From positions 682,001 to 746,000 of the forward strand of contig CM102285.1 of the NCBI GenBank assembly GCA_046563655.1: a stretch of DNA of 64,000 nucleotides. Direction: 5' to 3'. How positions within the stretch are numbered: position 1 is the first letter of the stretch; each line of letters begins with the position of its first letter. A program made the position numbers and the translations under genes. Below are positions 3,121-57,030 of the stretch, in pieces. The notes under the pieces are model-generated. The model ran no database searches. It was not told the origin of the DNA and was given only the letters and a program-made list of their open reading frames with translations. This stretch comes from Yuukianura sp. NJ FZ-2021. Taxonomy: Eukaryota.

Positions 3121-4686
3121 TTTTTATGTTTTTGAAAATTGCACATTAACAACTTGCATAAAAAATAGTTACAATAGCAATTTTATATAATTTTTGTGTC
3201 AAGTGCCTCCACAGAATTTTTAAAATCCGTCTGCTGTTGATAATTTTCGTAATAAAAGTAGTATTTAGCAAGTTTTGAGGACAAAATTTAAACAAGTATA
3301 ACTTAAGTTAAAGTTTTTGAAATTTTGAATTTGCACAAATTTTTTGTTAATGGGGGGGAACTAGTCTGAAATGAGTGTTTTTTAGAGACAAAGCCGTGGG
3401 AAGCTGTTCAAGGTCAAAGGTTAGCCGATTTAGACTCTTCCTTTGTCCAGTGAACTACTAACTATAGTTAGCGTTGCGTGCCAACATGTGTCATCATTAT
3501 ATTGGCATGTAGAATCAAGGTCAGTGTGAAGATGAATAAAAACAGGTCGTTATAGTTTGTTCAAGTAGTTAATTCAACACGAAATAACAACTTAATTTTG
3601 CAAAACATTTCGCAACATACAAAAAACTGGAACTGCCTTCACGTACCCGCAAAAAGTCAGTTTTAGTTCCTACAAACAATGTAAAAAATGTTCACAGAAA
3701 CAGATTTCATTAGTATTAGAACTTTGAAATTGTGATTTCTTTACATGAAATGCTATGTGTTGAAGCTAAATGGAGTAAATGCTGAGTGGATGCTAAATGT
3801 GGGTGATAAAAGTGACAGCTAGAAGATAGATTAACCAGTGCATTGCAAGGTCAAAGGTCACCAACACAAATCCTGTTTGAATCCTCTAAGCTTAGTAATA
3901 GCTTTAACATGTCGAAGAATTTCCAAAACATGCAAGAATTCAAGGCTACCACTACCAATAGGAATAAATTTCCAAATTTCAAGAAGTTTGAAGGAGCTGG
4001 GACTCCTCTGGACGGACATTTCCGGACGTTAGGTCTATCGGAGTGTAGTCTCGACTGAGGTCGAAGTGCCATGTACAATATGAACTTATGTGAATTACTC
4101 GTTTGTGTATGTCGGATTCTGTACAGAAAAGATCACATGACCGACCGCAAATCTCCGAACACAATTGACATGGAATGATGAAATTATGTGACTAGACTGT
4201 GTTAGCAGGTGACCAAATGGAGATATTACGTAAAATATTATGCTAATCTTACAAAGTCAATTAACAAAGTTGTTCATGGCCTGTCCAGAATCCAGAATGC
4301 AAGGACGATTGTATAATACGCAGATAACTAATTTCAAGTAGTTTTTCATTATAAAAACAGTACTTGTGTTGAATAATTTTTTGTGCTACAGGTAGGCGAG
4401 TCCGTCCATGGAATGTCCAGAACGAAAAATGCTCATCTCTAAAACCATAGTGCACCATTACACTGTCAGTTTGGAGTAGCCAGTTGACTTGAAAGGACCT
4501 TCGAAGATCCCGTTACGAAACTTGTCACAACAAGCAATAAGGGCCACTCATTTCATTGCTATTGATCGCTTCCGCAGGGTAAGTCTATTACTAATTCAGA
4601 ACAATTGCATATTTCATGTCGATTGTCACGGAAAGACTCATACCTTGGAAACTTTCTCTGTTTAGGTTTCGTCTCCGTTCTGAATC

Positions 4687-7062
4687 ATGTCGGGTACAGT
4701 TGGTGAAGCGCAACATGGTAACGCAGGTCACGGTCATTGCTGTGATCATGGTGACGGTCACCAGGTAGCGGATAACGGTAACTGTCGTCCTGGATACAGA
4801 ACACCCGAAGAGGCAATGAAGGGACCGAGAGAGCAGATTCTTTACATTCCTTGCATACATGCGGACAAAACGAAACCGGACTACTTAGCAACGGTGGACG
4901 TTGACCCTACGAGTGACAAGTTTCTACAAGTAAGTTAGTCCAATCAGAACGTCAAATTCACCAAGGTCATTCATAAGTTGTTAAATTTTTAGGTCATTCA
5001 TCGTCTCCCAATGCCTAACATCGGAGACGAACTTCATCATTCCGGTTGGAACATTTGCAGCAGTTGCCACGATGACAATAAGGACAATATCTGTCGTGAC
5101 AAGCTCATTCTTCCGTGCCTTCTCAGTGACCGAGTGTATGTCGTTGACATGTCGAAGGATCCAAGGGCCCCTATTTTGCACAAGACGATTGAAGCTGAGT
5201 GTCTCCATAACCTTGATCTGTCCACACCGCATACCACCCACTGTCTTCCTACAGGAGAGATCATGATCTCTACAATGGGCAAAAAAGACGGCTCAGGTCA
5301 AGGATCTTTTCTCATGCTGGATGCCAAGGACTTTAAAGTCAAAGGTAAGTACTGAATGAGTGTTGATAAATGAGTGTTGGTGGACTACTAAACTTCTAGT
5401 GGCTTAATTGACACCTCCACTAAATATCCACTGGAAGAAATGTACCCAAAATGGATGAAAGTATTAGTGGATAGAAAAAATTAAGAATTTAGCGTGAAAT
5501 TAAAGAAAATCAAATTTAAAATTACAAAATAATAGCAAAGAGTTTCTTTCAGTTAATTATTTACTTAAAACTCCTACAAAAAGGATATTTCCTTTGCTTT
5601 TGTACGGTTTTTGAATTGTGTAAGCTTTTTGTATTTAATTAATTCAAATCCCGCGGGCAAAGCTCATCTCCTTTGGATTCATCCATTTTTCTATTTCTTC
5701 CACTAGATATTGAACCGTGGATGAAATCCCAAAAACGTGGATATCCACCAACACTGTAAAAATGATATTTAAATCACAGATAATCATCACATGTTGTGAT
5801 ATAATAAAAGATTGTCTAAACAGTAATAAGACGGCAGTTTTAGATACGAGAGAAATTTAAGATTGCAGTTGGGTAGATAGTAAACTAACATTAGTGAGTA
5901 ATTGAGTTCGGATATTTTGATTGACAGGAACGTACTCATGTGACACGACTCCATTTGGATATGACTTTTGGTATCAACCGTACTTTGATGTAATGATTTC
6001 TTCTCAATGGGGAGCTCCAAAGGCATTCAAGGCCGGATTCAACCCAGCAGACGTTGACGCTAGTAACTGAAATCAAAGTTATTTGAATTCCCGCGCCTTT
6101 TTGCATTAACAATCTGAATGTAACTTAACTTAATTTGAAATTTCAGAACTCTATGGAACTGCCATCGACGTCTGGAGTTGGAAAGAGAAGAAGGTCAAGC
6201 AGACGATTGACTTTGGGAAATCTGGAATCATGCCCTTGGAAACCCGTTTTTTGCATAACCCAAAGAAGGCTCTTGGATTTGTCGGATGTGCCCTATCTAC
6301 TACCGTGTTTCATTTCCACCAATCAGCGGACAAAACGAAATGGGAAGCTGAGCAAGTCATTGCCATTGAGCCGAAGAAGGTCACTGGATGGCTGCTGGAT
6401 GAAATGCCCGGAGTTATGACCGACATTTTGATTTCCATGGATGACCGATTCCTGTACTTTAGCAACTGGATCCACGGAGACATTCGACAGTACGACATTA
6501 CGAACCCTGCTTCTCCGAAGCTGGTTGGACAATGCTGGGTCGGAGGATCCATTGTCAAGGGAGGTCCTGTAAAAGTCATCGGGGATGAAAATGTAAGTTT
6601 AGAAGTTCAATGTCTAGAACAGGTGAAGTTTATGTTTGTATTTTTTTACGTTTTCAAAACAAATGTTTTCAGAATCAACCAGAGCCACTTGTAGTCAAGA
6701 ACAGAACGGTCACCGGCGGCCCGCAAATGTTGCAGCTCAGCTTGGACGGAAAGCGTTTGTACGTCACAACTTCCCTCTTCTCTCCATGGGATCGTCAATT
6801 CTATCATAACTTGCTTGAGTAAGTTTTACATTTAAAATTTTTTTTATAAAGAATTAGGATAATCCTTTTTTTCTTGATTTGCCTTAGAACTGGAACCGTT
6901 CTGCTCCAGATTGACGTGAATACTGAAACAGGAGGATTGACCGTAAACCCAGATTTTTTGGTTGATTTTGGGAAGGAGCCCGATGGTCCAGTTTTGGCAC
7001 ACGAAATCCGATACCCTGGAGGAGACTGTACTTCGGACATCTTTCTTGCCTGTTGTGACTAA
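4687..7062 (+). CDS. SELENBP1: Selenium-binding protein 1 / methanethiol oxidase, copy 1; exons 4687-4929, 4993-5344, 5928-6062, 6147-6592, 6673-6818, 6888-7062
   Basis: Family motifs [77 protein letters not shown]. The spliced frame is intact. Confidence 0.95.
5373..5755. mobile_element. MITE-like insertion in intron 2 of SELENBP1 copy 1
   Basis: Terminal inverted repeat AGTGTTGGTGGA / TCCACCAACACT. This intron is about 580 bp versus about 120-130 bp in copies 2 and 5. Confidence 0.6.
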
Positions 7063-8027
7063 TTTACCTACCATAAACTCAATATTCTGCCTTGGACCAA
7101 TCAGCTCTAAGCTCAACCCATATTATAACTATTGGTCAAACTCTTTCCAATTTATATTTAGCTTCAATCAATACATATTTAGAAAATATTTCTTCAGTTA
7201 TTAGTGCGAATAATGCTCAAGAAAATTTGATATCGATTATTGCAAAACGGAATTTTTCAAGTTTGAGACACCTTAAATTTTAGAATTGGAATACACTTTT
7301 CAAAATCCTAACACGAGCAAATTTTAGAGTTGGAGATATGAAATTTCTGCGAAGGGTCAAACTATGAGTGAAAATTTCTTCCCGATTTTGACGGCTAACT
7401 TAACTTACATAAGTGAGAAGGCCAAATCGTTTTGAGATTCGCACAAATTTTGTGTTGGTGGGATTACTAGTTTACTCAGGTGTAAAATGACAAAATGAGA
7501 AATAGCTTGTTTAGATCATCGTCACCAGCAGAAATGTTGATTGGATCTTCCAAGTTCAGGATTAACTTGTCAAGTATCCTGTCGAAAACCTTTTAAATCA
7601 AATATACAAGGTGACCTATGCCATTAAATTGAATTTCCAATCAAAGGAGCTGGGACTCCTTTGCACGGACATTTCTGGGCGTGAGTCGCTATCGGTGTCT
7701 ACTTTCGACTGAAGTGGAAGTGTGTTGTACATTTTTGACTTATATGAATTACTCGCTAGTGTATTTCACGGGCGCTGTACAAAAAACATGTCATGACAAA
7801 CCATCAGTCTCCGGAAGCAAATGACATGGAATGATGGAATTATGTAAACTAGATATCATCAACAACTCAAAAACTTCAGCTGATGTAATAAAGATATTAA
7901 GGCTAAGCATACAAAGTTAATTGGGAGGTTTTTCATGGCCTGCCCGCACTCCGGAGTTGAAGGACGATCGTAAAATAACCTAATGAGGACTTAATCCAAT
8001 CCAGTTAATTAATAAAATTTAATTACT

Positions 8028-8249
8028 TACAGTAAAACATCTAATATATGCTGGCGCCCAGTATATAATCATCTCTATAATATAATTATTTATAACCAGC
8101 GTCTAATAATATAAATATATAACCAGCGTCTAATATAAGCATAATGTAGAGCGGAATTTTGAAATAGAAGCTGGTGTCCAGTACAGTCCCTGTGTCCGGA
8201 TGAGCAAAAAATAGTAATAGAATAGGCTTCTGTGAGGAGTTTTATGGTA
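8028..8249. mobile_element. MITE-like element, TACCGTAAAAC-terminal family
   Basis: Ends TACAGTAAAACATCTAATA...GAGGAGTTTTATGGTA. It is absent from the homologous upstream region of copy 5 (~17490). Related ends occur at 9179 and 24983-25150. Confidence 0.55.
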
Positions 8250-8565
8250 AACGCAATCGGTTGATCGTAAACAATTAATTTAAAGTTGCTTTTCGTCAGA
8301 ATATTTTTTTTCTGCTAATAGGTATGTGCTTGCGTCCATGGATCGTTCCTATAAAAAGTCGTGAAAAGGCCCAGTTGCAAAATTCGTCCCACAGTATTCG
8401 TTCAACAGTAACAAAAGCCGGTGGTCTCGTCGCTTTTATTCGTTTCCGCAGAGTAATTCAATTACTAATTCAGAACAATTGCATATTTTATCGTCTATTG
8501 TCACGGAGAGAATCATGCCTGAAAACATTCTTTTTTTTGGTTAGATTTCGTCTTCAATCTTAATC

Positions 8566-10446
8566 ATGCTGGGATCAGCTTGTGACAACAAAGGAACGGG
8601 TAAAGGTAACTGTCGTCCTGGATACAGAACACCCGAGGACGCAATGAAAGGACCGAGAGAACAGATTCTGTACGTTACGTGCATTCAAGCGGACAAAACA
8701 AAACCTGACTACTTGGCCACCGTGGACGTTGACCCAAGGAGCGACAAGTTTCTGCAAGTAAGTCTCCGATCAGTCGGTCACCAACGTCACTCACAAGTTG
8801 TTAATTTCTTTAGGTAATTCATCGTCTCAAAATGCCTTACGTCGGTGACGAACTTCATCACTCGGGTTGGAACATTTGCAGCAGTTGCCACGATGACAAT
8901 AAGCATAATATCCGTCGTGACAAGCTCATTCTTCCGTGCCTTCTCAGTGACCGAGTGTATGTCGTTGACATGTCGAAGGATCCAAGGGCCCCTGTTTTGT
9001 ACAAGACGATTGAAGCTGAGTGTCTCCATAACCTGGATGTATCGGCACCGCATAGCCCCCACTGCCTTCCGTCCGGGGAGATTATGATCTCCACAATGGG
9101 CAAAAAGGATGGATCAGCTCAAGGATCTTTTGTCATACTGGATGCCAAGGATTTCAAAGTGAAAGGTACGTAATGCAATACCGTAAAACTCCTAATAAAC
9201 GCACGTGCGCTTACTCACAATCATGCTAGTTAACAGTTATCAAGTCGGTTGACATAAGTAATTTTTGCGTATTTTGATTAACAGGAACGTACTCATGCGA
9301 AACAACTCCATTCGGGTTTGACTTTTGGTATCAACCGTACTTTGATGTGATGATTTCTTCGCAATGGGGAGCTCCAAAAGCATTCAAGGCTGGATTCAAT
9401 CCAGCTGACGTTGACGCAAGTAACTGAAATTAATATTATTTAAAATCTCACACATTTATTACCTTTATAACCTGTGTCTAACACTAAAAAAATAACAACA
9501 TAATATCAATTTATAGAACTCTATGGCAATTCCATCCATGTCTGGAGCTGGAAGGAGAAAAAAGTCAAGCAAACGATTGACCTTGGAAAATCAGGAATCA
9601 TGCCGTTGGAAACCAAATTTTTGCATAATCCAAAACGGGCTCATGGATTTGTTGGATGTGCCTTGTCAAGTACTGTGTTTCATTTTCACCAATCAGAAGA
9701 CAAAACGAAATGGGAAGCTGAACAGGTTATTGCCGTTGAGCCGAAAAAGGTCACTGGATGGGTCATGGATGAAATGCCGGGAATTATGGCCCACATCATG
9801 ATTTCCATGGATGATAGATTCCTGTACTTTTGCAATTGGTTCCATGGAGACATTCGGCAGTATGATATTACGAACCCTGCTGCTCCGAAATTGGTTGGAC
9901 AATGCTGGGCGGGAGGATCCATTATAAGGGGGGGTCCTGTTAAAGTGATCGGGGATGAAAATGTAAGTTTTATTAGTTCATGTTCTGAAAAAGTTGAAGT
10001 ACTTTTAGTTTGTACTTTTTCATAGTGTTTAAAAAATGTTTTTAGAATCAACCGGAACCGCTCGTCATCAAAAACAGGACAATCGCTGGCGGACCGCAAA
10101 TGATACAGCTCAGCTTGGACGGAAAGCGTTTGTACGTTACAACTTCTCTCTTCTCTGTATGGGATCGCCAGTTCTATCCTGAGTTACTTGAGTAAGGTTT
10201 TCATAAAAACGTAAAAAATATTATAAAAATTGTTGTTTTGCAATTTTCGTTTTTTTCTCTCTTTTTCTGAGAACTGGATCCGTGATGCTCCAGATTGATG
10301 TAAATACAGAAACAGGAGGGTTGACCGTGAACCCGGATTTTTTGATTGATTTTGGAAAAGAACCCGATGGACCAGTTTTGGCCCATGAAATGCGATACCC
10401 TGGAGGAGACAGTACTTCAGATATCTTCCTCGCCTGTTGTGATTAA
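8566..10446 (+). CDS. SELENBP1: SELENBP1 / methanethiol oxidase, copy 2 (6 coding exons)
   Basis: Same motifs and intron positions as copy 1; ends [21 protein letters not shown]. Confidence 0.93.
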
Positions 10447-11539
10447 TTAACCCCACCCAACCTGAGCCCATTCAAACCTTTTAACCAATCACAAGCTCAA
10501 TATCCGGCCTTAGTTTAGTTATTAATCCAACTAGTTTCAATTTTTATTTAGCTTCATTCATAAAAGTCAAAAACATTCAAAACCTTTTTCAAACTCCGTC
10601 ATGTGAATAATACTGTGCTCAAAATTCAGTACAATCTTTTTGCAATTTCTTCCTTGAGTTTTACTTTTCGCACTAACGACCACTACAATTATTACAAAAC
10701 GGAAAAATTTTCCCTAAATGGTCGAAACCGCACAAATGTTTCCTTTTCGGACTATTTGCGGCAGATCATCAACTTTTCAACTTTTATAGTAGAAAATACT
10801 TTTTCATTTATTTGTACTTTCATTTATACTTTTCAACTATTTCAGTAAAATTATATTTTTGGACTCAAAAAATTTTTTCCGAAAACAACCGCAGACTGAC
10901 ATACGCATTCAAAGTGTGGTGCAAAAAGTTATTCTTAAAATTACAAAAGTTGAACTTTCTTGCGGAAGAAGTTCTATTTGGAGGAAACTTTCCTGGTCTA
11001 AGTTCCAAGTTCACAAAGCTAAATATAATTTAAATTTTCCCGCATATTGGTTTTAACGTCGTCTTCACGCATATAACGCAGGTTGTTGTCCCAGGTTGAA
11101 AAATTCTCGGAATTTTTCTTCTTCAACTTTCCAAATTTCCAATTTTGAAAAAAAAAAAACAACAACAGAAAAGAGTCAATGAACTTTTCAGCTTTAGCTT
11201 ATTTTTTAAATTCTCCCTCCAAACGGCGCGTATAAATATGTGTGGATTCAACTTCATGAATTTATACTTCAAAAACTTCACAAAAGGTACTTCACTAAAC
11301 AGAAACCAAAAGTATTTCACGGCGCAGAAGCTGCAAACACTTCACTGCGCAGGAGTAGAAATTAGACTCCAACTTTTGCACTACTTCATTTCCGCTGAGT
11401 TTGTGGTGAGTTTCTAAAAAGTTTTTGCGTTCTGCTCATCGTTGTTTCTAAAATTGAACTTTTTAAGTTTTCGAATGAGACTTCTGAAAAACTGTCTTTC
11501 TAATTAACTTTGTTTGAAAATTGTTCCTTAGCAACAGAG

Positions 11540-14207
11540 ATGGATTTGATGGACAAAGGCGATGATCCTACCGGATTGGGGAGTGTAACAGGCGGGCTAG
11601 GCGGTGCTGTGCAAGGAATCGTTGACAAAGTTGCCACTGCCGCAGCACAAGCCAATCAAAAACCGCAGTGCTCCGCTGGGTATGCTTCTCCAGCAGAAGC
11701 CATGAAGGGCCCTCCAGAAAAACTGCTCTACATTCCATGTATTCAAACGAAACCGTTTCCTGACTACTTGGCCACCATTGACGTCGATCCAGAAAGTCCG
11801 ACTTTCCAACAGGCATGACAACAAAATCAACTTTTTTGAATTTGGCGCTCTTTTTAAATCGTTTGGCGCCATTTCTAATTAATTTTGACTCGTCTAAGGT
11901 TATTTATCGGACCGAGTTTCCTTTCATTGGAGATGAGCCGCACCATACTGGGTGGAATGCTTGCAGCAGTTGCGATGGGAACGTAATGTGTCGTGACAAG
12001 TTGATCATGCCGTGTCTCGGGTCGGACCGGATCTACATTATTGACATGGCGAAGGATCCGAAGAAACCTGAACTGTTCAAAGTCATTGGAGCAGAGGAAA
12101 TGCACAAGTTTGGTCTCGCTAGTCCGCACACTCCGCACTGTCTCCCGACTGGAGAAATCATGATAAGTACCATGGGCAACCCCAATGGAGATGGTCTAGG
12201 GTCATTCCTTATGCTTGACTCTCGGAACCACTACAAGGCCATTGGTAAGAACCCTCTACGTTAATGACATAAGTTAATCTAAAAAAAAACATGTAAACAA
12301 AAATTTTAAGTTACGAAAACTACTTCATGATTTTGCTATTCTTGTCTAGTTGTCCAACTGTCTGTCTGTCCGCCTGTTTGTCTGTTTGTCCGGCTTAATT
12401 ACTTTGCGGACTAACTTCATCGACCAAACTAGTTTTCATTAAATGACGAAAGCTACTTAATGATATCCTGTACCTGTCTCTCTGTCCGTCCGTCTGTCTG
12501 TGCTACACCACTTATTTCAAATAATAATATTGATGAAACAGATAATACAAATATTTGAACATAACATTAATATAAACTATTTTATTATTTTTGATTAGGA
12601 ACGTACTCTTCTGATACGACGAAATACGGATATGATTTTTGGTACCAACCGTACTTTGGGGTCATGGTGTCCACGGAATGGGGAAAACCATCTGTCTTCA
12701 AAAAAGGATTTGATCCCAAGGACCTTGGAAGTAAATAAATAAATTTATATTATATATAATAGATTACATATTTAAAATATATTGATATTTTAAGAGCAAT
12801 ATGGACAATCCATCCATATCTGGAACTGGGGCCAGAGGAAGAAGATCCAAGACATTTTCTTGGGTGACAGCGGGCATTTGCCTCTGGAAGTTCGGTTTTT
12901 GCACAATCCGCGTGCACCGCATGCGTACGTGGGCTGCGCCATTTCCTCAACCGTGTTCCATGTTGGGCGAAATGAGAGTGAAACTGATCCAAGTAAAAAG
13001 TGGTTTGCCAAGAAGTGTGTCGCTATTAAGAACAAGAAGGTCAAGAATTGGGTGTTGCCGGAGCTTCCTGGAGTTGTCACTGACATTTTGATATCGATGG
13101 ATGACAAGAGGTTGTTTCTAAGCAACTGGCTCCAAGGCGACATCCGATGCTACGATCTATCTGATCCAAATGCTGCAGAACTACCGTTGCTCGGTCAAGC
13201 TTTTGTAGGAGGAGTGGTTGACACGAAATCCAAGGCACAATACGTTGATGAGGCAAGTTGATACGATTTTTTTATTAAAACCTAAAAATTACTTAACTTT
13301 TTAGTTATTACCTAACAAAATCTGATAGTTGTTTGTCCGTCTGTAACTTATGGCATGAGAGATAAAGAACGAGAATAGAAAAGAATAAGGCTCCGAGTGA
13401 GATTCGAACCCATGTCTCTTCAATCCGGTAAGAGCTCTAACCCTTGAGCTAGCAGGCCCCACTCTAAAAACTCTCGAAGCATGGAGCAGATGGAAGCGCA
13501 GCTACTTCCGCTCTTCTCTTCAATGCGATCTTCATCCTGTGGCGACTAGGAGGGAGACTGCCCCATCCTCTATCCTAATAACGTGATAGTTCAATGGTTA
13601 GAGCTCTTCTAGTATTGAAGAGATGTGGGTTCCAGTCCCATTCGGTTCTTTATTTTTTATATGAATAAATATGAATATTATATTATATTATATTATATTA
13701 TATTATATGAATAAAATGTAACGCATTTAATTTCCGGACAGAAACCACGTGAGCGGCTTGTGATTAAGGGACGGACGATTCACGGTGGACCTCAAATGCT
13801 GCAATTGAGTTTAGATGGAACACGGCTGTACACTACGACATCTCTGTTCTCACCGTGGGACAAAGAATTCTACCCGGATTTGATCAAGTGAACTCTAGAA
13901 TCTCAAAATTTAAAAAAAAATTCCGAAAGTATTAAAATTTGAATTTTAACTTTTTAATCTAGGTATGGATCTGTATTGCTCCAATTGAACGTGACGCCAA
14001 AGGGAGAACTGTTTGTGAACAAAAACTTTTTGGTTGACTTTGGGAAAGGAACCGAACGGCCCTGTTTTGGCACACGAAATCCGATACCCGGGAGGTGACT
14101 GTACTTCCGACATTTTCTTGTCGTGTGGAATCGATTCGGGAAGCACCGGCGGTAGATCTGCTACCCAGAATGCGGAAAGTTCTGAGATTGCTGCAGAAAC
14201 TTCATAA
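11540..14207 (+). CDS. SELENBP1: SELENBP1 / methanethiol oxidase, copy 3 (divergent; two GC-AG introns; +1 frameshift near 14045, probably an error)
   Basis: [71 protein letters not shown]. Both termini are extended. Confidence 0.9.
13388..13460 (-). repeat. tRNA-derived (SINE-head-like) sequence in an intron of copy 3
   Basis: Reverse complement has A-box TAGCTCAAGGG and B-box GGTTCGAATC. The anticodon loop is irregular (9 nt). Confidence 0.6.
13582..13655 (+). repeat. Second tRNA-derived sequence, inverted relative to the one at 13388
   Basis: TAGTTCAATGGTTAGAGCTCTT...TTGAAGAGATGTGGGTTCCAGTCCC, alignable to the reverse complement of 13388-13460. Confidence 0.55.
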
Positions 14208-14737
14208 TTCTGATTTTGAAATTTCAATAAAAATTCAATAAAGCTTTACATAACTTGACATATGCTTTGTTTTTTTTTTTGCTGCTAGGTCCGACTAATC
14301 CACTGAATTGTCTGAATTTTGCGATTGCAAAGGTCATAGTCCTCTCAGACAAACATTACAAGGATAACAGACAACTCTTACCGCACATCCGTTGTAATGT
14401 TTTTGCTGATTGCTTTATAATTACTTTTTTACGAACCTTAATTACTCATCAAATTTCGAAAAAAAGTTTGATCAAATTTTCTTCCTTATAAAAACTGCTC
14501 CGCTTGTACTTTTTCCTCCTAGTCGATACTGGCGCAGTACACTGGTTGCGCTAACAAAAAAAGGACTTTCGCTACGAATTTTTTTTTTAAATTTGGAGTT
14601 CGCTAAAAAAATTTTAAATTCAATTGGCTAAAAAAAACTTTGAATTTGATTCTGTAAAAAATCTTAAATTCAGTTGGTTAAAAAATCTTGAATCTGATTA
14701 GTTGAAAAACCTTGAATTTGATTGGCTATTGCCCAAA

Positions 14738-16909
14738 ATGAGTGGACTGGACACACTCAGTGCAGATCTTGGAGCAGCAGTGGATGAAATTTGTACCAAT
14801 CCTGCTCATGCGCCAATTGAAAACGAATTCCCAGATTCTGCCGATTTTGAAAACGTTGAGCGCGGGAAACAATGTGGTCCAGGCTACCAATCACCCACGG
14901 AAGCCATCAATGGTCCAAAAGAAAAACTTTTGTACATAACTTGCATCAATCCAAGAAAAGACGCACCGGACTTCTTGGCCACCGTGGATGTCAATCCTAG
15001 TAGTAAAACGTATCAGCAGGTAAGTTATACAAAATTTCTGACTAAAAATTTTCAAAATTTAAAATTTTTAAATTTTCGAAAACGATTTCAGATTATACAC
15101 CGTTTGTACATGCTTGACCTTGGAGACGAGCTGCATCATTTTGGGTGGAACTCTTGTTCTAGTTGTCATGGAGACGTCAATGCCTGTCGTGACAAGCTCA
15201 TACTGCCAGCACTTTTGGGCAACAAAGTCTACTTTGTGGATGTGAAAAATGCTAGAAAACCTGCGCTGTTGCCTCTGAACACAATTACGCCTGTGCAATT
15301 TGGGTTGCTCAACATCAGCGCACCGCATACTACGCACTGCCTCCCAACTGGAGAAATCATGATTTCAATCATGGGAGATGCACAGGGCAAAGCACAAGGA
15401 AATTTCCTCATCCTGGACGCCAAAACGCTACTCATCAAAGGTAATTGTACATAAACCTTACATAAATCACACCAAACTTACATAAATTACATAAATCGTA
15501 CATGACGTAAGCAAACCTTACATAAACTTTAGGCCTCTACTCTCAGAAGCCAACGAAATTCGGATACGATTTTTGGTACCAACCGAAATTCGACGTCATG
15601 ATTTCTACCCAATGGGGAGCTCCGAAAGCCTTTAAAAGGAATTCAACCCGTCAGATATCACGGCTGGTAAGAAACAGTTGTGTACAAGGATTGTTGACTT
15701 TGATTTTCTTTAACAGGTTGAGCACTACCTCATGTCTTTTCGATTTCGCAAAAAAAGTGTCTTTCATCGATGTCAAAACAATACAGCCGAATTTTTTAAA
15801 TTTTACGTACGAAATGCTACCATTTTTTTCTATTTTTGTCAACAAGCGAGGTGGTGCTCACCCTGTTAAAGAAAGTTCATTTTTCCTTGTCAAGGTACCT
15901 TGGTTGTGGGGCTTTTCTGGAAAACTAAAATCTCAAAAAAAATTGTTTAAAATTTTCGAAATTTTAGGATACTATGGTCACGAACTGGATGTTTGGGCTT
16001 GGACAGACAAGAAGTACTTGTACTCCATAGATTTGGGAACAGCAGATGGACTGTTGCCCTTGGAGATCAGATTTTTGCATAACCCTGAGCAACCAATCGG
16101 ATACGTTGCCTGTGCAATCTCATCTACTGTGTTCTATTTACATCGAAATGACAAAAGAAAGTGGGTGGCTGATTTGGCAATCAAAATTCCCTCTAAAATG
16201 GTGTCAGGTTGGGTGATGAACGACATGCCAGGAGTGATTACCGACATTCTCGTATCCATGGACGACCGATTTCTGTTCCTTAGCAACTGGGTCCATGGCG
16301 ACATTCGGTGCTACAGTTTGGATGAACCATCTTCACCTCAACTTGTGTCAACTATTTGGATTGGTGGATCCATTTATAAAGGCGGCAAGGTCACGGTCAT
16401 GAATGACCCGGAGGTGAAAAATTCAAATTTCAAAAAATTCTCATATCAACTTTCATATCTCAACAAAATTATATCTGAAGTTTTTCAAACAATTTCATGG
16501 GAAATGAATTTTATGACTTTTTTAGTTGAGTGAGCAACCAGATCGCCTTATAGTAAAAAATCGACCAATCACAGGCGGCCCTCAGATGCTGCAACTCAGT
16601 TTGGACGGAACACGATTGTATGTGACCACTTCCTTGTTTTCGGCATGGGACAAACAGTTTTACCCGGACCTCATCACGTAACTTCCTTTACAAAAAAATT
16701 TCTTTTTTTGTAAAAATTTTCAAAATTTTGAAAATTTTGTTAGAACTGGAGCCGTTCTGCTCCAAATCAACGTCGACGAAGGGCAGATGACGCTCAACGA
16801 GGATTTCTTGGTGGATTTCGGAAATGAAAGCAGTGGTCCATATTTGGCACATGAAATGCGATATCCAGGAGGAGACTGCAGTTCAGACATCTTCCTACCT
16901 TGTAATTAG
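14738..16909 (+). CDS. SELENBP1: SELENBP1 / methanethiol oxidase, copy 4 (frameshift near 15634-15641)
   Basis: [55 protein letters not shown]. One base is missing in the expected AFKxGFNP segment. Confidence 0.88.
15711..15868. mobile_element. MITE-like element in intron 3 of copy 4
   Basis: Terminal inverted repeat TAACAGGTTGAGCACTACCTC / GAGGTGGTGCTCACCCTGTTA. Confidence 0.65.
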
Positions 16910-17849
16910 TTGAATTAGAAAAAAATAATATTACATTATAATAAATTAATACAAACTGTATATATACTCAATTAACAAATTAAATAAATTCTGCACAAAA
17001 AAGAATTTTGCTATGTTTCTCACCAAGTGAATTCTGCATCCGCAACTTTTCTGCACAACTGAATGTTAACAATGTGTAGAGTTTTCTTTCCAATATTCAA
17101 ATTTTTAATTTGAAAATTTTTCAATTACTAAACTTATTGCTAAACGTCAGACGCTGCAACTCAAAATTCAAATTGAGGGAAAGAAAGAATAACCTGGCCA
17201 CAAAGCAACTTTTTTTCCCTGTTTTTGGCAAAACCAGGATTCGGTAGGTTTTGGGAAAAAAAAACAAATTAAAACAAGCCTAACTCAAGCGCTCAAATTT
17301 ATGAAAATTCGTTCAAAATTTTTGAAATTCGCTCAAATTTTTTGTAAGAGCTGGGATTGTTCTGGACCAGATGTAATTAAGATGTTAGTCTATTCCAACA
17401 AAATTCCTTGCCCTGCCCAAAAGTCGGAGTTGAAGGACGATCGTAAAATGGGTTATTCAGACGCAGTTTATCCATTAATTAAATTTAATTAATCAAATGC
17501 AATCCGACGATCGCAAGTAATTAATTTAAAGTACCTTGCTTTTCTTCATAATAAAATTTTTTTTTCTGCTACAAGTAAGTGTGTGCACGTCCATGGATAT
17601 AAAAACACTCTCTCTAGTAATTAAGCTCAGCGTACTCTGACATGTTGACTCGGAAGGACGAGGAAAGAGCTAGTTACAAAATTCGCCATATGTACAGCAA
17701 CTAGAGCCATTTCATCGCTATTCATCGTTTCCGAAGAGTAATTCAATTACTAATTCAGAACAATTGCGTATTTCATGGGTCTATTGTCACGGAAAGGCTC
17801 ATACTGTCTGCATACTTTTTCTGTTAAGGTTTCGTCTCCGTTCTGAACC

Positions 17850-19933
17850 ATGTCGTGTACAGTTGGTTATGGTCACGGTCACCAAGGAGCGGATAACAGT
17901 AATTGTCGTCCTGGATACAGAACGCCCTTAGACGCAATGAAGGGACCGAGAGAGGAGATACTGTACATTCCTTGCGTCCACGCGGACAAAAAGAAACCGG
18001 ACTACTTGGCTACTGTGAACGTCGACCCCAAGAGCGACAAGTTTCTGCAAGTAAGTAGTGGAATTGGAAGCTCACGGTGACCAAGGTCTTTCATAAACTG
18101 TCAATTGTTTAGGTAATTCATCGTCTCCCAATGCCTAACGTCGGTGACGAACTTCATCATTCCGGCTGGAACATTTGCAGTAGTTGTCACGATGACAACA
18201 AACATAATATGCGCCGTGATAAGCTCATTCTTCTGAGCCTTCTTAGTGACCGTGTTTATGTCGTTGACATGTCAAAGAATCCGAAGGCTCCTGTTTTGTA
18301 CAAGACGATTGAACCTGAGTCTCTCCATAACCTTGATCTGTCCTCTCCACACTCGGTACATTGTCTTGCCACCGGTGAGCTCATGATATCTACAATGGGT
18401 AAACAGGATGGATCAGCTCAAGGATCTTTTTTCATGCTAGATGCCAAGGACTTCAAGGTCCAAGGCAAGTATATGATATTTAAACTACAGATTCTTATCA
18501 AAGGTTGTAAGATAAACATTTTAAAGATATGTTTAAGATATTTTAAGGGAGTAAATCGACGTTAGTACTTACGTATGCATATTTCGCTGACAGGAACGTA
18601 CTCATGCGACACAACTCCGTTTGGCTTCGACTTTTGGTATCAACCGTACTTTGACGTAATGATTTCTTCTCAATGGGCAGCTCCAAAGGCATACAAGGCC
18701 GGATTCAATCCGGCTGATGTTGACGCAAGTAATGGAAATCAATGTTATTAATCGTAAGTAGCGAAGGCTACTTTTTGTCTGATCGGCCGACCGTCCGTTT
18801 CTCCGTCTCCGGCGATTTTCTGAGAAACTGTTCAACATTTTGGCGATCTCAGTGTACTGAATCATACCATAAACAGTGTATTAACTCAAAGGTCAACGAG
18901 CCTTTGAGCTATATCCACCCTAGGGCTACCACCCTATACCCGGTTTTTCAATTTGCTTTTTACGTTTACAAAACAATCTGAGTCTACTTAACTAACTTAA
19001 TTGGAATTTCCAGAACTCTATGGAACTGCAATCAACGTGTGGAGCTGGAAAGAGAAGAAGCTAAAACAAACGATTGATTTTGGAAAAGCCGGAATCATGC
19101 CTTTGGCAACCCGCTTTTTGCATAACCCAAAGAAGGCTCATGGATTTGTTGGATGTGCCCTGTCAACTACTGTGTTTCATTTCCACCAATCAGAGGACAA
19201 AACGAAATGGGAGGCTGAACAGGTCATTGCCATTGAGCCGAAAAAAGTCACCGGATGGCTACTGGATGAAATGCCGGGGGTTATGACCGACATGTTGATT
19301 TCAATGGATGACCGATTCTTGTACTGTAGCAACTGGGTTCACGGAGACATTCGACAGTACGACATTACGAACCCTGCGTCTCCGAAACTGGTTGGACAAT
19401 GCTGGGTCGGAGGATCCATTGTCAAGGGGGGCCCTGTTAAGGTCATCGGGGATGAAAATGTAACTTTTTTAGGAGTTCCGTTTTGAAAAAATTTGGAAGG
19501 TTTTGTTCGTGTATGCTTAAATTTTGAGTTTTTTAATTACTTTTTTCCAGAATCAGCCAGAACGGCTCGTCGTTAAAAGCAGGACGGTGACCGGCGGACC
19601 GCAAATGCTGCAGCTCAGCTTAGATGGAAAGCGTTTGTACGTGACGACTTCCCTATTCTCTTTATGGGATCGTCAATTCTATGATAACTTAATTAAGTAA
19701 GTTTTACATTAAAAAAATATTACACAAAATGCTAAGTTGTTAAAAAAAATTTTTTTAGATCTGGAGCCATGTTGCTGCAGATTGATGTAAATACTGAAAC
19801 AGGAGGATTGACCGTGAACCCAGAGTTTTTGGTTGACTTTGGGAAAGAACTCGATGGACCAGTTTTGGCCCATGAAATTCGATACCCTGGAGGAGACTGT
19901 ACTTCGGACATCTTTCTTTCCTCTTGTGACTAA
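17850..19933 (+). CDS. SELENBP1: SELENBP1 / methanethiol oxidase, copy 5 (close to copies 1 and 2; GC donor at 18465)
   Basis: Same six-exon structure; ends [21 protein letters not shown]. Confidence 0.92.
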
Positions 19934-20116
19934 TTAACCTATCCTTAGCTCAATATTCTGCCATGGAGCAATCATGTTAAACTAAAAGCTCATCCCTACT
20001 TTAATTATTAATTAATGAATGCGGTCATGAAATTTGAAATCAACAAACTATAGGCTGATATGCAATTCCGGAATGACAGGAGCTTATATCATTAGTACAT
20101 AATACATAAATTGATA

Positions 20117-20516
20117 GAAAAGCAGGAATGGGTAACTGATTTGGCCATCAGAATTCAGCTTGGGTGATGAACGGCATGCCAGGAGTGATTACCGACATTC
20201 TCGTATCCATGGACGACCGATTTCTGTTCCTTAGCAACTGGGTCCATGGCGACATTCGGTGCTACAGTTTGGATGAACCGTCGTCACCTCAGCTTGTGAC
20301 AACTATTTGGATTGGTGGATCCATTTATAAAGGCGGTAAAGTCACGGTCATGAATGACCCTGAGGTGGAAAATTCAAATTTCAAAACGTTTTAGAAACAT
20401 GCATATTAAAATTTAAAAATTTCACTAATTTTTTAAAGTTGTGTGAGCAACCAGATCGTCTTGTAGTCAAAAATCGACCAATCACAGGCGGCCCTCAGTT
20501 GCTCCAACTCAGCTTA
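20117..20516 (+). pseudogene. SELENBP1: Truncated SELENBP1 fragment, duplicate of the 3' part of copy 4
   Basis: [26 protein letters not shown]... is nearly identical to copy 4. It breaks after GGPQLLQLS and is followed by a copy of copy 4's 3' flank. Confidence 0.85.
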
Positions 20517-20996
20517 TAGCTTTAGAAAAAATAATATTATATTATAATAAATTAATACAACGATATGTAATATATATACTCAATTAACAACCTAAGCTAA
20601 ATAAATTCTGCGTATAAAAGAAATCTGCTATTCGTTTCTCGCCTAACGAATTCTGCACAACCGAATGTCGGCAATGTGCAAAAGTTTCCAATATGCAAAA
20701 TTTTCAATTTGAAAAATTGTCCATTTGCTAAGCATCCCAAAATGTCTTACGTTGTAACTTAAAATTCAAATTGAAAAGAATAAAGAATAACCTAGCCAAG
20801 AAGCAATTTGTTTGTCTTCTTTCTTTTGTTTTTTTTTTAGTTTTTGATTTTTTTTTAAATTATGGAAATTGTTCCCTATAAAAGCATGCTGCATGCTTCC
20901 TTTGCACATTTAGTTTTCCTTGACATTTGGGCGAAAGAACAAGAGGTCAAGCACTTTCCGCGTGACCTTTGGATTTCAAAATTCTCCAATTTCAAA

Positions 20997-21401
20997 ATGG
21001 TGCGAATTACTGCTCAAATGACCACTGGAGGCCAAGCACCTAAGAAACAACTGCAAACAAAAGCTGCCCGCAAGTCTGCTCCATCATCACACGGTGTCAT
21101 GAAAGCCGCTCCGTACCGTCCCGGAACCGTCGCTCTTCGGGAGATCCGACGATACCAGAAATCTACCGAGTTACTCATTCCGAAACTTCCGTTCCAGCGA
21201 TTGGTGCGTGAACTTGCTCAACCTTTGATGATCGAATTGTGGTTCTCGAAGTTAATGTTGCTAGCACTTCAAGAAGCCTCTGAAGCCTATTTGGTCCGAC
21301 TTTTTGAAGACACGAACGAGAGTGCCATCCATGCCAATAGAGTGACCATCATGCCCAAAGACATGATCCATTCCCGCCGAATCCGAAGAGAACTGAACTA
21401 A
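20997..21401 (+). CDS. H3: Highly divergent histone H3 variant (134 aa; K9M, K36M, K79M, K14Q, no K4)
   Basis: [41 protein letters not shown]. Intact, intronless ORF with a downstream stem-loop. Confidence 0.92.
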
Positions 21402-21545
21402 AACATGGCCAGATAAAGACTAAATGTACATTTGATTCTGTACAATTGTTTCTGTAAAATTGATTCTGTACAATTGTACAATTGTTCGCCGCATTTGTTT
21501 AGTAGTGATAGTCATGTCGTGTCTAGATTTGTCCAAGCATTATCC

Positions 21546-21561
21546 GGCCCTTTTAAGGGCC
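21546..21561 (+). promoter_or_regulatory. Histone 3' stem-loop
   Basis: GGCCCT-TTTA-AGGGCC followed by ACCAC and a purine-rich AAAGAG element. Confidence 0.92.
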
Positions 21562-22025
21562 ACCACATTCTACAAAGAGCAAAAACATTTTCAAAATTTT
21601 AAACCAATTTGACAACTTTTTTGAACGGCAAAAAAGTTTCAGCTTTTTTTTTTGTTAAAACGACTGGAGGCAAAAACAAAAGATTCAAATTCGCCTAAAA
21701 CGGCATTAGCAGAAACTTTTGGCTTGACTTTTTTTTGTAAAAATTAAAAAAAAAATTACTTGCAAGTAACAAACTTTTTGAAAAAAAAACGACAAAAATG
21801 CTGATTTGCATAATTTTGATCAACTGAAAGCAAAACTTAAGTCAACGAACAAAATTTTTTTTTCACACAATTCTTTTCTACTTGTCGTAAAATCTCTGAC
21901 TATAAAAGCAGTCTGGAGCATTCCAGTGACAATCTAGTCTTTTTCAGCCATTGAGCCAACTTGACACAAGGTCAAACAGACTCCGTTACCTTGACCTTTG
22001 ACCTTTGACCTTGACCTTTCCCAGA

Positions 22026-23063
22026 ATGGCTCGTACTAAACAAATTGCTCGGAAGTCAACTGGAGGCAAAGCACCTAGACTGCATTTGGCTACAAAAACT
22101 ATCCGGAAGAACAATCAACCCTACGTCATCCTCTTGTAGCAACACGAAAATGCAGGTATCTAAACAGTTAACTAAAAATAATAGCTTAATTACATTTCAA
22201 TCTAGATCAGTTCAACTTTGGAACAATTTGAATGAAGAAGTAGTAAAGTCAAGCAACTTAATGAATTTTAAAAGAACACTGAAAAAAGTTTTACTAAAAG
22301 AGCAAAATGAAAAATATGATAAGTAATTAAGGTAATTAATTAGTGTAGGTTAGAATAGATGTAGGTATTAATTAGCAAATTAGTTAAGTAAAATTATATT
22401 ACGATCACACAGACTCTTAGTGTAGGGTAGACTAGGTATAAATTAAGAGTTAGTTAAGATAGATTACTTGTAATACCAACGATCTTTTTTGTGTAAGACC
22501 ACTTAAGTGGGTACAATTAAGAACAAAAATTTAATATCGAAAAGCATACATTGAATAAACCAAAAATATGAACTCAAAAAAAAAAAAAAAAAAAAAACAA
22601 TCTACCCGTTCCAGCTACCCGCCCTGTCCGGAAATACGCATCGAATAGCAATCCTGACCATGCGCAAGATGCTGATGACTGGTCACTTGTCCATGTCGGT
22701 CCTCGACACACACGTCCAGCATCTAAGTTCCGGAGCGATACCGTGCCGGTACCGGTACCGGTCCAGAAACACCGTCGCTACCGTCCCGGAACCGTCGCTC
22801 TTCGGGAGATCCGACGATACCAAAAATCTACCGAGTTGCTCATTCAGAAACTTCCGTTCCAGCGATTAGTTCGTGAGATAGCGCAGGATTTCAAGACTGA
22901 CTTGCGATTCCAGAGTTTAGCGATCGGTGCCCTCCAGGAAGCGTCGGAAGCCTACTTGGTCGGACTCTTTGAAGACACGAACTTGTGTGCCATCCATGCC
23001 AAACGAGTCACCATCATGCCAAAAGACATTAATCTCGCTCTACGACTCCGCGGAGAACGTTAA
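22026..23063 (+). pseudogene. H3: Long-tailed histone H3 variant interrupted by a LINE fragment
   Basis: [28 protein letters not shown] at 22026-22109. The frame resumes at 22596 and runs without stops into a near-canonical histone fold ending at 23063. Confidence 0.85.
22122..22595 (+). mobile_element. 5'-truncated non-LTR retrotransposon with poly(A) tail and target-site duplication
   Basis: ORF end SRSVQLWNNLNEEVVKSSNLMNFKRTLKK resembles an L2/CR1-type ORF2 C-terminus. A-tail of about 20 nt. TSD AACAATCAACCC (22110-22121) / AACAATCTACCC (22596-22607). Confidence 0.85.
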
Positions 23064-23226
23064 CAAACGCAAACTTTGACAGTTTTCGGAGAAAAATGAC
23101 CGAAAACAAAATTCCGACACAATTATTTCGAAAAAAAAAAACTGTCTGATTTCAACTCTCATCACTGACACACGTCACGTCAACAATCGTCACGTCTAAA
23201 TAAGTCATTTCAACTAACCCTGTGAC

Positions 23227-23242
23227 TGCCCTTTTTAGGGCA
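23227..23242 (+). promoter_or_regulatory. Variant histone 3' stem-loop
   Basis: TGCCCT-TTTT-AGGGCA followed by the same TTCTACAAAGAGCAAAAACA seen after the other two H3 genes. Confidence 0.8.
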
Positions 23243-23862
23243 ACAATTTCTACAAAGAGCAAAAACAGTTTCAAAATTTTGAAACTTTAAAAAAAAATTG
23301 AACTTCCTGACCTGCTGGTCCTTTTTCCTGCCACATTTTTTACGAAAAATAAAATCCATAGAAAAGTTCATCCTAACTACAAAATGAGCGCTCACTCCTA
23401 CAAATGCCAAGGAAAAAAATAGCATTCGCAAAATTTTTAGCATTTCCAAAAAAAAACGCTAATTTCCAGAATTTGCATTTCAATTTTACCGTTGGCAAAA
23501 AAAAATGTTCACTTCCAGAATTTGCATTTTAATTTTAGCATTTACAAAAAAACGTTCATTTCCAAAATTTGCATTTTAATTTTATCATATGCAAAAAAAG
23601 AGTTGTTCATTTCTAAAATTTGCATCTTAGTTTTACCATTTGCAAAAGCATTCAGCAAGGTCAATAATGCAAACTGCATGTTTTAAGCCGACGAAAAGCA
23701 AAACGTTATACGTCGTGTTCAATTTTTTTTTTGAATTTCCTTTCTATGGAAGTTGAGCCCTATAAAATGAAGCTGGGTGAGTCAAGTCAATGCTCAGTCT
23801 TCGTCAATCTGCTGGCCAAACAACCTGGACTGGACGATAAACTTCACAGAGTTTGACCTTGA

Positions 23863-24303
<441 letters not shown>

Positions 24304-24472
24304 ACTGCGCAGAATCAGAGCAGGACTAGCTAAAACTTCGGCTGTTTCCGGAAAAATGTACAAAAATCAAAAACTTCAAAAAAAAAGTCAATCCAATGTT
24401 GCCAATTTTGTTAATTGTTGTGAATCTTCATCAAAATTTCTGCCCTGTGTTTACAATTTCAACTAACTTCAA

Positions 24473-24488
24473 GGCCCTTTTAAGGGCC
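24473..24488 (+). promoter_or_regulatory. Histone 3' stem-loop
   Basis: GGCCCT-TTTA-AGGGCC-ACCA. Confidence 0.92.
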
Positions 24489-24982
24489 ACCAAATTCTAC
24501 AAAGAGCAAAAACACTTCTTCTTTTTTCAAATTTTTTGACCTTTGACCTCAAAAAGTTTCCTTTTCCTTTAAAACTTTTACCAACTCTTTTCTAAGAAAA
24601 CTTCTAAGGGTACATACACCAAAGATGCGTCATTCTCACTATGTTATGACTTTGTCTGACCAACATGGAATGTTTAGTTATGAGCATGCGCGTAAGAATG
24701 GACATGAAAATGTCCAAGGTTCGTCATCAGCACTCCATATACAAAAAACAATAGTTCTCATTTGCATAATATTGCCAATATTCTCTTTGTTGCTAAAAAT
24801 CAATCCTGACAGTCCGTCAAGTCATGTAAGGAATGTATTGTTTTAGAATTGCAATTTTTGTACGTTCATTAGCATTCGATTAAAATGAAACACCAGCATT
24901 TTTGGAGACACAAATAACTTTTTGGCATACGTTGAACATTTTTAGCAAATGAAGCTACACCCATTGCCTTAAAAATATCCGG

Positions 24983-55002: not shown

Positions 55003-55498
55003 TTATTGTGTTCCCATAAGCACAAATGCTACGCCTCGGGCAATGTTGTCCAGCAAAGTCAACTTGGCTTTTGCTTCCATGTAGTAGAAGGACCCAATTT
55101 GACATTTCAAAGTGGGTTGACTCTTCAGCAGTCTGCTCAGATATGCTCGTTCAGTAAGTGTGCAACCACGCGTCTCCATGGCAACAGTCACATTTCGCTG
55201 AAATTGGACGCTCGTATTGTACACTTTTGACATCATGATTGCTCCAGGGGGAATGATGACCATTAAAATAGCAAAACACATAAAAAAGATAATGTTGAAT
55301 GCCAGCGAGATTTGATTGCGCAGGCGTACGACGCAGTACACCGAAATGTAAATTGCGAGCACTCCACTTAGCTTGAATACTGGAATATTGATGGTTCCGT
55401 AGACAATGTTATGCAGATCGGTCAAGAGCCGCATGACTCTGTATACGGCTGCGCAGTCAGTTCGGTCGATTCTGCGCAGGCCATTGCAAACTAAAGTA
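55003..55498 (-). CDS. GR/OR-like receptor, last exon only (cut by the gap)
   Basis: KSQPTLKCQIGSFYYMEAKAKLTLLDNIARGVAFVLMGTQ*, paralogous to downstream copies. Confidence 0.55.
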
Positions 55499-55599
55499 AN
55501 NNNNNNNNNNNNNNNNNNNNNNNNNNNNNNNNNNNNNNNNNNNNNNNNNNNNNNNNNNNNNNNNNNNNNNNNNNNNNNNNNNNNNNNNNNNNNNNNNNN
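55499..55599. other. Assembly gap
   Basis: Run of about 100 N. Confidence 0.99.
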
Positions 55600-56542: not shown

Positions 56543-57030
56543 TTTTCAACTGTTATACCTTTGACAAAAATTTCAAAACGTCCGCAAACATTCTCGCCCT
56601 ACGTTTATCGGCAAACTGACAACAAAAATTTATTCCATTTTTTTGAAATTCAACAGACGAGAATTTTTTTTTTAATTTTTAAAATTACCGACATTACATA
56701 TGCCACTTGCTACCTAATTTTTTTGTCTAACTTTACAACAGTATGCAATCAATGTAGAAAGCGTGTGATAATGCAACTGTAGCCACCAAAATTATGAAGT
56801 GTGTATTTAAATACACACGCGTGTGTATAATTTAATGTAATTGACATTTGTTAATTATGAACTAAAAATCTTGAATTTACTAGTTTAAAAGAAAACTTAA
56901 TAACTACTTTCCACCTCCTAAAGTGTCAAAAACTGTCACTATCATTATGGTTTTTTGAAAACTCAACACATCATTTATTCTTTACCAGCGTTTTAGCGCC
57001 TTTTTTTTCAAAATTTACTAAATTTTGGTT

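Follow-up and report, generated by a model that had tools for sequence, protein, structure and literature searches.

We analysed a stretch of 64,000 nucleotides (nt) of Yuukianura sp. NJ FZ-2021 (positions 682,001 to 746,000 of contig CM102285.1, assembly GCA_046563655.1), hereafter the window, which carries three histone H3 units on the same strand, each with a TATA box, a 3' hairpin and an identical 18-nt downstream element. The first of these, gene 1, encodes a divergent H3 (P0001) in which methionine stands at the positions of lysines 9, 36 and 79. The second, gene 2, looks broken, and the third, gene 3, encodes a near-canonical H3 (P0002). We consider gene 1 to be probably a functional, rapidly evolving H3 variant, since its reading frame, TATA box, hairpin and downstream element have been kept amid diverged flanks and since nonsynonymous change in its fold core is low relative to synonymous change. 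The coding features on which this description depends are the following.

20997-21401, + strand: coding sequence (CDS) of gene 1, divergent histone H3 P0001, 134 amino acids, stop codon 21399-21401 included.
21018-21020, + strand: ATG at the K9 position, codon 8, context AQMT, by alignment to P0002 and the database H3s P0103 and P0064.
21099-21101, + strand: ATG at the K36 position, codon 35, context HGVMKA, by the same alignment.
21228-21230, + strand: ATG at the K79 position, codon 78, context PLMIE, by the same alignment.

The frame from 20997 to 21398 is without internal stops on translation. Its product matches the Pfam Histone family (PF00125) over residues 6-130 (118.3 bits, cut-off 26.4), and is collinear with H3 over its full length, sharing H3-specific blocks that include a run of 22 unchanged residues (codons 40-61). 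Identity to P0002, P0103 and P0064 is 69-72%, with 42 of 134 positions differing from P0103. When all 13 lysine codons of P0002 were compared with gene 1, the codons for K9, K36 and K79 had each changed from AAG to ATG, that for K14 from AAA to CAA (glutamine) and that for K115 from AAA to AAT (asparagine), and lysine was unchanged at K18, K23, K27, K37, K56, K64 and K122. K4 is deleted relative to P0002 or, in an alternative MAFFT alignment, replaced by arginine, and is thus non-lysine either way. A preliminary description of this locus, made from the letters alone, had reported an open and intact frame, methionine codons at these three positions, the loss of K4, the same fates for the remaining lysines and the flanking changes R8Q, G33H and P38A; all of these are borne out by the translation, the alignments and the codon-by-codon comparison.

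The changes around the substituted lysines extend to the motifs in which they are recognised. The N-terminal residues around K4 are altered or deleted, the K9 region reads AQMT and lacks the R-K-S context, and the K36 region reads HGVMKA, with R8Q, G33H, P38A and proline at R40; G34, V35 and K37 are retained. KAARKSAP, the stretch around K27, is intact. Conserved residues are also replaced in the fold (R63P, R83W, L109E, C110S and L126H), and H113, D123 and I130 are kept. Two established classes of variant were considered and ruled out. An H3.3-type replacement variant does not fit, as positions 87-90 of P0001 are L, M, L and L against A, A, I and G in H3.3-type matches and a stem-loop is present. 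The centromeric type (cenH3/CENP-A) does not fit either, as the whole tail can be aligned to H3 and loop 1 equals that of H3 in length. A compensated frameshift behind the changed run of codons 76-89 was rejected by eye, the in-frame nucleotide match being better than the shifted one. An AlphaFold2 monomer model of P0001 from a 17-row alignment (mean predicted local distance difference test score 63.4, predicted template modelling score 0.27, helices 1 and 2 fused) was not used.

Read contigs agree with the window over much of the gene. Contigs of X1 match 20561-21143 and those of X2 match 20561-21135 with no other letters, although X1 and X2 are one sample, possibly the source of the assembly itself, and their agreement is therefore not independent support. 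Confirmation of the codons in reads, as the preliminary description had proposed, was obtained in this way for K9 and K36; the K79 codon, which no listed contig piece of the window version spans, is backed by the assembly and by depth alone. Depth in X1 over the unique parts of gene 1 is about 170-210, which indicates that the gene is single-copy in X1. Contigs of X1-X3 also hold a second version of gene 1, with R101 back to glycine, S126 back to alanine and three synonymous differences, in which the gene-1-type glutamate at codon 108 is kept. In run X3 a second copy shows roughly 89% identity. A contig of X4 from a second organism ('organism B'; depth 3.9) has seven differences over 21359-21626, and both CDS differences among those listed sit in the S126 codon; these details of contig differences come from the best-supported 40 of 334.

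The regulatory anatomy of gene 1 combines a promoter element with a histone-type 3' end, as follows.

20877-20884, + strand: TATA-like box TATAAAAG of gene 1, about 113 nt upstream of the start codon.
21425-21476, + strand: 14-nt tandem repeat, 3.7 copies, in the long 3' untranslated region (UTR) of gene 1.
21541-21586, + strand: histone 3' stem-loop match (Rfam Histone3, RF00032; 32.1 bits, E 2.3e-6 in a 6-kb search).

The same TATA box and a short block upstream of it are common to genes 1, 2 and 3. The start codon stands in the context CAAAATG, and an in-frame ATG at 20862 would give a longer open reading frame (ORF) of 179 amino acids, which is unlikely to be in use because that ATG lies upstream of the TATA box. 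At the 3' end, the hairpin GGCCCT-TTTA-AGGGCC occupies 21546-21561, 144 nt past the stop, which agrees with the stem-loop named in the preliminary description; an RF00032 search of the whole window at the gathering score of 34 returned no match because the hairpin, at 32.1 bits, falls just under it. The 18-nt downstream element (21569-21586), a candidate element for U7-dependent cleavage, begins 7 nt past the hairpin in both genes 1 and 3, and hairpin and 18-mer are exactly identical between these two genes. The 18-mer has three exact sites in 64 kb, where 0.31 matches with up to three mismatches would be expected by chance. Depth in X1 reaches 3577-3789 in the hairpin bins versus about 200 for unique sequence, as expected if the hairpin is common to many histone genes.

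An ordinary H3 copy in a read contig has 29 nt between the end of its CDS and the hairpin, from which we take ordinary H3 copies to have a short UTR, and the 144 nt of gene 1 are unlike the short UTR of ordinary stem-loop histone genes. No H4, H2A or H2B signal was found in the 64-kb window, where hairpin and 18-mer are carried by the three H3 units only. By its 3' signals gene 1 is probably of the stem-loop type, but not by UTR length or genomic setting.

Comparison with gene 3 places these elements against a background of extensive divergence. In alignments of their flanks, genes 1 and 3 agree at about 74-78% of ungapped columns, and 15 gap events are needed upstream (127/133 nt) and 19 downstream (199/227 nt). 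Kept despite this divergence are the TATA box and 43 of the 44 bases of hairpin plus 18-mer, and the 402-nt CDS has a single indel relative to gene 3, an in-frame deletion of 6 nt. Nonsynonymous (dN) and synonymous (dS) divergence between the two genes are 0.216 and 0.519, a ratio of 0.42. Changes on the gene-1 branch were counted with custom Nei-Gojobori-style scripts and polarised with gene 2 where possible; the ratios of nonsynonymous to synonymous change per site (pN/pS) below, with binomial p against neutrality, apply to segments whose borders were set after inspection of the data.

Codons 1-134: nonsynonymous/synonymous 54/35, pN/pS 0.54, p 0.005.
Codons 1-39 (tail): nonsynonymous/synonymous 22.5/15.5, pN/pS 0.58, p 0.072.
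Codons 40-72: nonsynonymous/synonymous 1/3, pN/pS 0.12, p 0.063.
Codons 73-89: nonsynonymous/synonymous 16.5/3.5, pN/pS 1.15, p 1.
Codons 90-122: nonsynonymous/synonymous 5/9, pN/pS 0.16, p 0.001.
Codons 123-134: nonsynonymous/synonymous 9/4, pN/pS 1.03, p 1.

The longest unchanged run, of 22 residues, has a permutation p of 0.004. In simulations with 65-94 random substitutions, the frame of gene 1 stayed free of stops with a chance of 0.03-0.08. G+C content at third codon positions is 0.50 in gene 1 and 0.536 in gene 3, in a window with 32-40% G+C overall. These results show that the fold core of gene 1 has been under protein-level constraint for much of its history, and that change elsewhere has been relaxed or adaptive. 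A gene that died recently may also be compatible with them.

The substituted lysines show a bias in what replaced them. Five AAG lysine codons enter the gene 1 comparison. That of K27 is retained, another has been lost by deletion, and each of the three that underwent substitution is now ATG. Under the branch's own substitution spectrum, a single nonsynonymous, non-stop step from AAG leads to methionine with a probability of 0.088-0.144, so that three of three has a P of 0.0007-0.003 in a window picked from a very large scan. Methionine gains in general make up 5 of 43 replacements in gene 1 (P 0.002-0.009 at a background of 2-3%). The choice of methionine is thus non-random, which is suggestive of selection for this residue.

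The two neighbouring units offer a local reference for these changes.

21901-23266, + strand: gene 2, broken-looking H3 variant.
23761-24513, + strand: gene 3, near-canonical H3 P0002, CDS 23887-24303, stem-loop 24473-24488, 18-mer 24496-24513.

Gene 2 opens with a TATA box at 21901 and is H3-like from an ATG at 22026 to an in-frame stop (22137-22139) after 37 codons. A repeat element follows at 22198-22512 (X1 depth 747 versus about 190 for unique sequence), then an A-run at 22576-22597, and the frame that holds the H3 fold (22572-23063) is without an ATG. Its 3' end has a degenerate hairpin (23227-23242) and, 6 nt further, the exact 18-mer (23249-23266). Rescue by splicing was considered and set aside, as no donor/acceptor pair that would link the opening ORF with the frame of the H3 fold was seen on reading the sequence. 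Gene 2 looks broken on this evidence. By eye, private changes in its fold are more often synonymous than nonsynonymous. The fold carries K36Q, R63Q and S87L where gene 1 has K36M, R63P and S87L, and since both genes are altered at these three positions, their common ancestor was probably already without K36.

P0002, the product of gene 3, is canonical except around K27, where it has A24V, S28M, A29P and P30S and two extra residues; copies without those six extra bases are present in X2, X3 and X4 read contigs. Gene 3 is in this respect roughly a mirror image of gene 1, the K27 neighbourhood being rewritten in the former and the K27 motif alone being kept in the latter. Repeats are scattered among the units. 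The 7-nt unit TTGACCT recurs before the gene 2 ATG (21991-22019, 4.3 copies), just before the gene 3 ATG (23860-23870) and after the gene 3 downstream element (24538-24550), and a 49-nt tandem repeat of 4.3 copies lies between genes 2 and 3 (23435-23647).

Relatives of P0001 were sought among 5.8 billion clustered proteins and among 1.84 billion representatives. A whole-protein search in which all 8000 candidates were scored gave identities of 52-74% among the best 120 of 8000, and a search of representatives gave 60-76% among the best 150 of 17072 matches. With the tail alone (763 of 765 candidates), the best matches were ordinary H3.3-type tails, and lysine-to-methionine (K-to-M) replacement was seen in 0 of 6 inspected. 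Altogether 374 H3-like proteins were gathered, with methionine at K9 in one, at K36 in two, and at K79 or K27 in none. Two of these appear to be fragments or erroneous sequences: P0161 has K36M and is truncated, and P0159 has K9M and loses its frame past helix 2.

The third, P0069, is a 137-amino-acid H3 variant from ENA assemblies, a singleton cluster found on three contigs, the longest of 1086 bp. It is 69% identical to P0001 (91/131) and 83% identical to P0002, and shares with P0001 6 of 42 derived states, the highest count among the 374: a valine near the N-terminus, K36M, R40P, F78L, G102R and I124M. It has G33S, and K4, K9 and K79 are kept. P0069 and P0001 group in a maximum-likelihood tree with a support of 90/90 (not starred), and a tree uniting P0001, P0069 and the gene 2 fold was not rejected (approximately unbiased test, p 0.144). 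Moreover, a six-residue motif before K27, which was not used in finding P0069, occurs only in P0069 and in exon 1 of gene 2 (2 of 409 sequences). If this kinship is real, the variant lineage would have had K36M together with R40P from early on, before K9M and K79M arose and K4 was lost. One may extend this to a selected animal family of K-to-M histones with ancestral, conserved K36M (and R40P) and later K9M and K79M, whose members, deposited by way of the histone stem-loop pathway in, for example, the germline or early embryo, would resist marking in cis and also either trap the methyltransferases of K36 and K9 or keep them out. We regard such a family as improbable.

A number of observations weigh against a functional gene 1, and several of them favour a different account of it, in which gene 1 is a decaying or effectively neutral duplicate, either a young pseudogene or a weakly constrained copy, whose frame is still open by chance, and its methionine trio a coincidence of a large scan. 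Private site changes over codons 40-132 number 37 on the gene-1 branch, whereas gene 3 has 5 and gene 2 has 11. A pN/pS near 1 in codons 73-89 and 123-134, and of 0.58 in the tail, fits relaxed constraint as well as adaptation, and the segment contrast itself was drawn along borders chosen with the data in view. Radical replacements have struck conserved residues, among them R63P, R83W, L109E, C110S and L126H, at sites which we take to be DNA contacts or residues of the four-helix bundle. The substitution spectrum of gene 1 is drifting from GC to AT (40 GC-to-AT versus 25 AT-to-GC changes), the 3' UTR has 144 nt against the 29 nt of an ordinary H3 copy, and the adjacent gene 2, with its in-frame stop and repeat insertion, looks broken. 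Near-identity of the nucleotides of codons 40-72 in genes 1, 2 and 3 suggests gene conversion, and conversion from other H3 copies may keep a dead gene 1 looking alive. The protein database searches found no clear ortholog of P0001, the best matches being ordinary H3 at 60-76% identity, and JGI metagenome contigs gave 0 matches to two degenerate DNA patterns written around K36M and K79M. Given the size of the scan from which the window was picked, a 1-in-1000 pattern is possible by chance. Finally, it was resemblance to P0001 that brought P0069 to light, which biases the count of shared states upward, and long-branch attraction is possible in their grouping.

Decay has to contend, however, with the absence of any frameshift in the CDS despite indel-rich flanks, with the low chance that the frame would have stayed without a stop, with the constraint on the fold core (pN/pS 0.16, p 0.001), and with a TATA box, hairpin and downstream element kept in otherwise scrambled DNA. 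Neither the bias toward methionine nor the link to P0069 is readily accommodated by it. We consider decay possible but doubtful; if it is right, gene 1 is no more than what histone gene duplication ordinarily leaves behind.

We hypothesize instead, with belief and doubt about evenly balanced, that gene 1 is a real, intact and partly constrained H3 variant that is poor in marks in cis. It would be a lineage-restricted, stem-loop (replication-dependent-type) variant that originated in a tandem duplication away from the main histone repeats, and its product, if expressed, would pair with H4 and enter nucleosomes, perhaps in particular cell types. There, P0001 would receive no methylation at K4, K9, K36 or K79 and no acetylation at K9 or K14, and would keep K18, K23 and the K27 motif, making it a mark-poor H3 blind to most methylation systems. 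The altered loop 1 and start of helix 2, which presumably hold residues read by H3 chaperones, and the altered C-terminal helix would probably change chaperone choice or tetramer pairing, and perhaps deposition. Methionine is more likely to have been selected as an uncharged, unbranched stand-in for lysine than as an enzyme trap. The preliminary description had envisaged an H3 with its marks erased and writable only at K27. The lost lysines and motifs and the intact K27 motif agree with the greater part of this, and a caveat attaches to the remainder, because nucleosomes with K36R or K36A are poorer substrates of PRC2, whose methylation of K27 on the same nucleosome is strongly lowered (PMC7725500). 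Replacement of K36 in P0001 may, by analogy, lower K27 methylation in cis, which is a further point against the mark-poor reading in so far as that reading leaves K27 writable.

The preliminary description had also proposed a methyltransferase inhibitor, and methionine at K9 and K36 does recall one. Gene 1 would then be a natural trans-acting 'oncohistone', its methionine at K36, and perhaps at K9, entering SET active sites and lowering H3K36 and H3K9 methylation on ordinary H3. K9M and K36M transgenes cut trimethylation of H3K9 and H3K36 (H3K9me3 and H3K36me3) at a few percent of total H3, and a K4M transgene lowers methylation in trans only slightly (PMC3885631). The non-random choice of methionine, the occurrence of K36M in P0069 as well, the retention of G34, V35 and K37, and the tolerance of SETD2 for alanine at +2, the position of P38A (PMC7495481), are all compatible with an inhibitor, for which EZHIP provides a cellular precedent (PMC12713659).

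The sequence contexts, however, point the other way. R8Q affects a residue at which any replacement abolishes SUV39H1 activity, G9a and SUV39H2 being similar (PMC8303541). G33H would place a bulky side chain in a tunnel through which SETD2 passes G33-G34, described as 'perfect for side chain-free glycine' and conserved in NSD1/2/3 and ASH1L (PMC4973290). G33 is moreover among the positions that SETD2 reads most strongly, along with G34, V35 and P38, and R40, where SETD2 prefers arginine, is proline in P0001 (PMC7495481). DOT1L is insensitive to K79M (PMC3885631), in line with a caveat about this enzyme in the preliminary description. The inhibitor proposal of that description is weakened by the contexts of K9M and K36M and by DOT1L, points which it had entered only as caveats. 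These enzyme-specificity data are all mammalian and may differ from the enzymes of the host. Because R8Q and G33H break the strongest determinants of SUV39/G9a and SETD2, we favour the mark-poor variant acting in cis and consider trans inhibition unlikely.

The replacements in the C-terminal half of the fold suggest one further possibility. L109, C110 and L126 are residues of the H3-H3' four-helix bundle, and mutants of the C110E/L126A/I130A type block tetramers. L109E, C110S and L126H, all present in the alignments, could accordingly block tetramer formation and leave P0001 non-nucleosomal, either dimerised with H4 or bound by a chaperone as a decoy. The retention of H113, D123 and I130 speaks against this, and we consider it very improbable.

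K-to-M histones are otherwise encountered as cancer mutations and laboratory tools. Like the oncohistones K36M and K9M, P0001 has methionine at K36 and K9 of an H3-like protein, and the solved chain that scores highest against it is an engineered H3.2 with methionine at K36 in the alignment (9gw2, 181 bits). Oncohistones, however, are somatic or engineered, differ from normal H3 by a single residue and keep the enzyme context, whereas P0001 is germline-encoded and has 42 of its 134 residues changed relative to P0103, R8Q and G33H among them.

Closer in some respects are variants such as human testis H3.5, which is without K37 and has K79N, and the Arabidopsis sperm H3.10 and H3.15, which escape K27 methylation. 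These, like gene 1, are extra, fast-evolving H3 paralogues that escape marks in cis and are often expressed in the germline. In them one or two sites are lost, and not to methionine, whereas P0001 has lost K4, K9, K14, K36, K79 and K115, three of them to methionine, and its gene has a stem-loop 3' end. On present sequence evidence, we place gene 1 among lineage-specific H3 variants.

EZHIP (CXorf67) resembles P0001 in that a genome-encoded methionine stands in for an H3 lysine that is normally methylated; it has been described as mimicking an oncohistone and as expressed in the germline only (PMC12713659). It is a non-histone protein that mimics K27, whereas P0001 has a full histone fold and an intact K27 motif. 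Full-text searches of the literature, assessed from the entries they listed, turned up no description of a cell-encoded H3 with methionine at K9, K36 or K79, and we found no mention of a natural K-to-M H3 in the available portions of PMC12153100 and PMC12439981. If expressed, gene 1 would be a natural experiment on chromatin without K4, K9, K36 and K79 methylation but with K27, and would bear on the evolutionary use of the oncohistone mechanism and on the birth of histone variants from tandem duplicates. Were the K-to-M family real, EZHIP would have a cellular parallel carried on a histone, and the oncohistone mechanism would have a physiological use.

The remainder of the window contains other gene arrays. 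Upstream of the H3 genes, a tandem array of selenium-binding-protein genes (methanethiol oxidase, PF05694) extends over 4993-20394 on the + strand, and the ORF list shows five or more pairs that resemble two-exon genes. For one of the exons, database identity reaches no more than 60%, so that the host belongs to a sparsely sampled group. Downstream, an array of seven-transmembrane-like ORFs occupies 55003-63065 on the minus strand, with no Pfam match; its nearest Atlas clusters are of the arthropod 'odorant receptor' type (score 0.96), which hints at an arthropod host, and a run of N (X in translation) lies near 55.5 kb. Between these, large + strand ORFs at 41003-43622, with a fibronectin-like stretch ahead of them, run into the beginning of a protein kinase domain (PF00069, 54 bits), an arrangement suggestive of a giant kinase gene of the muscle type.

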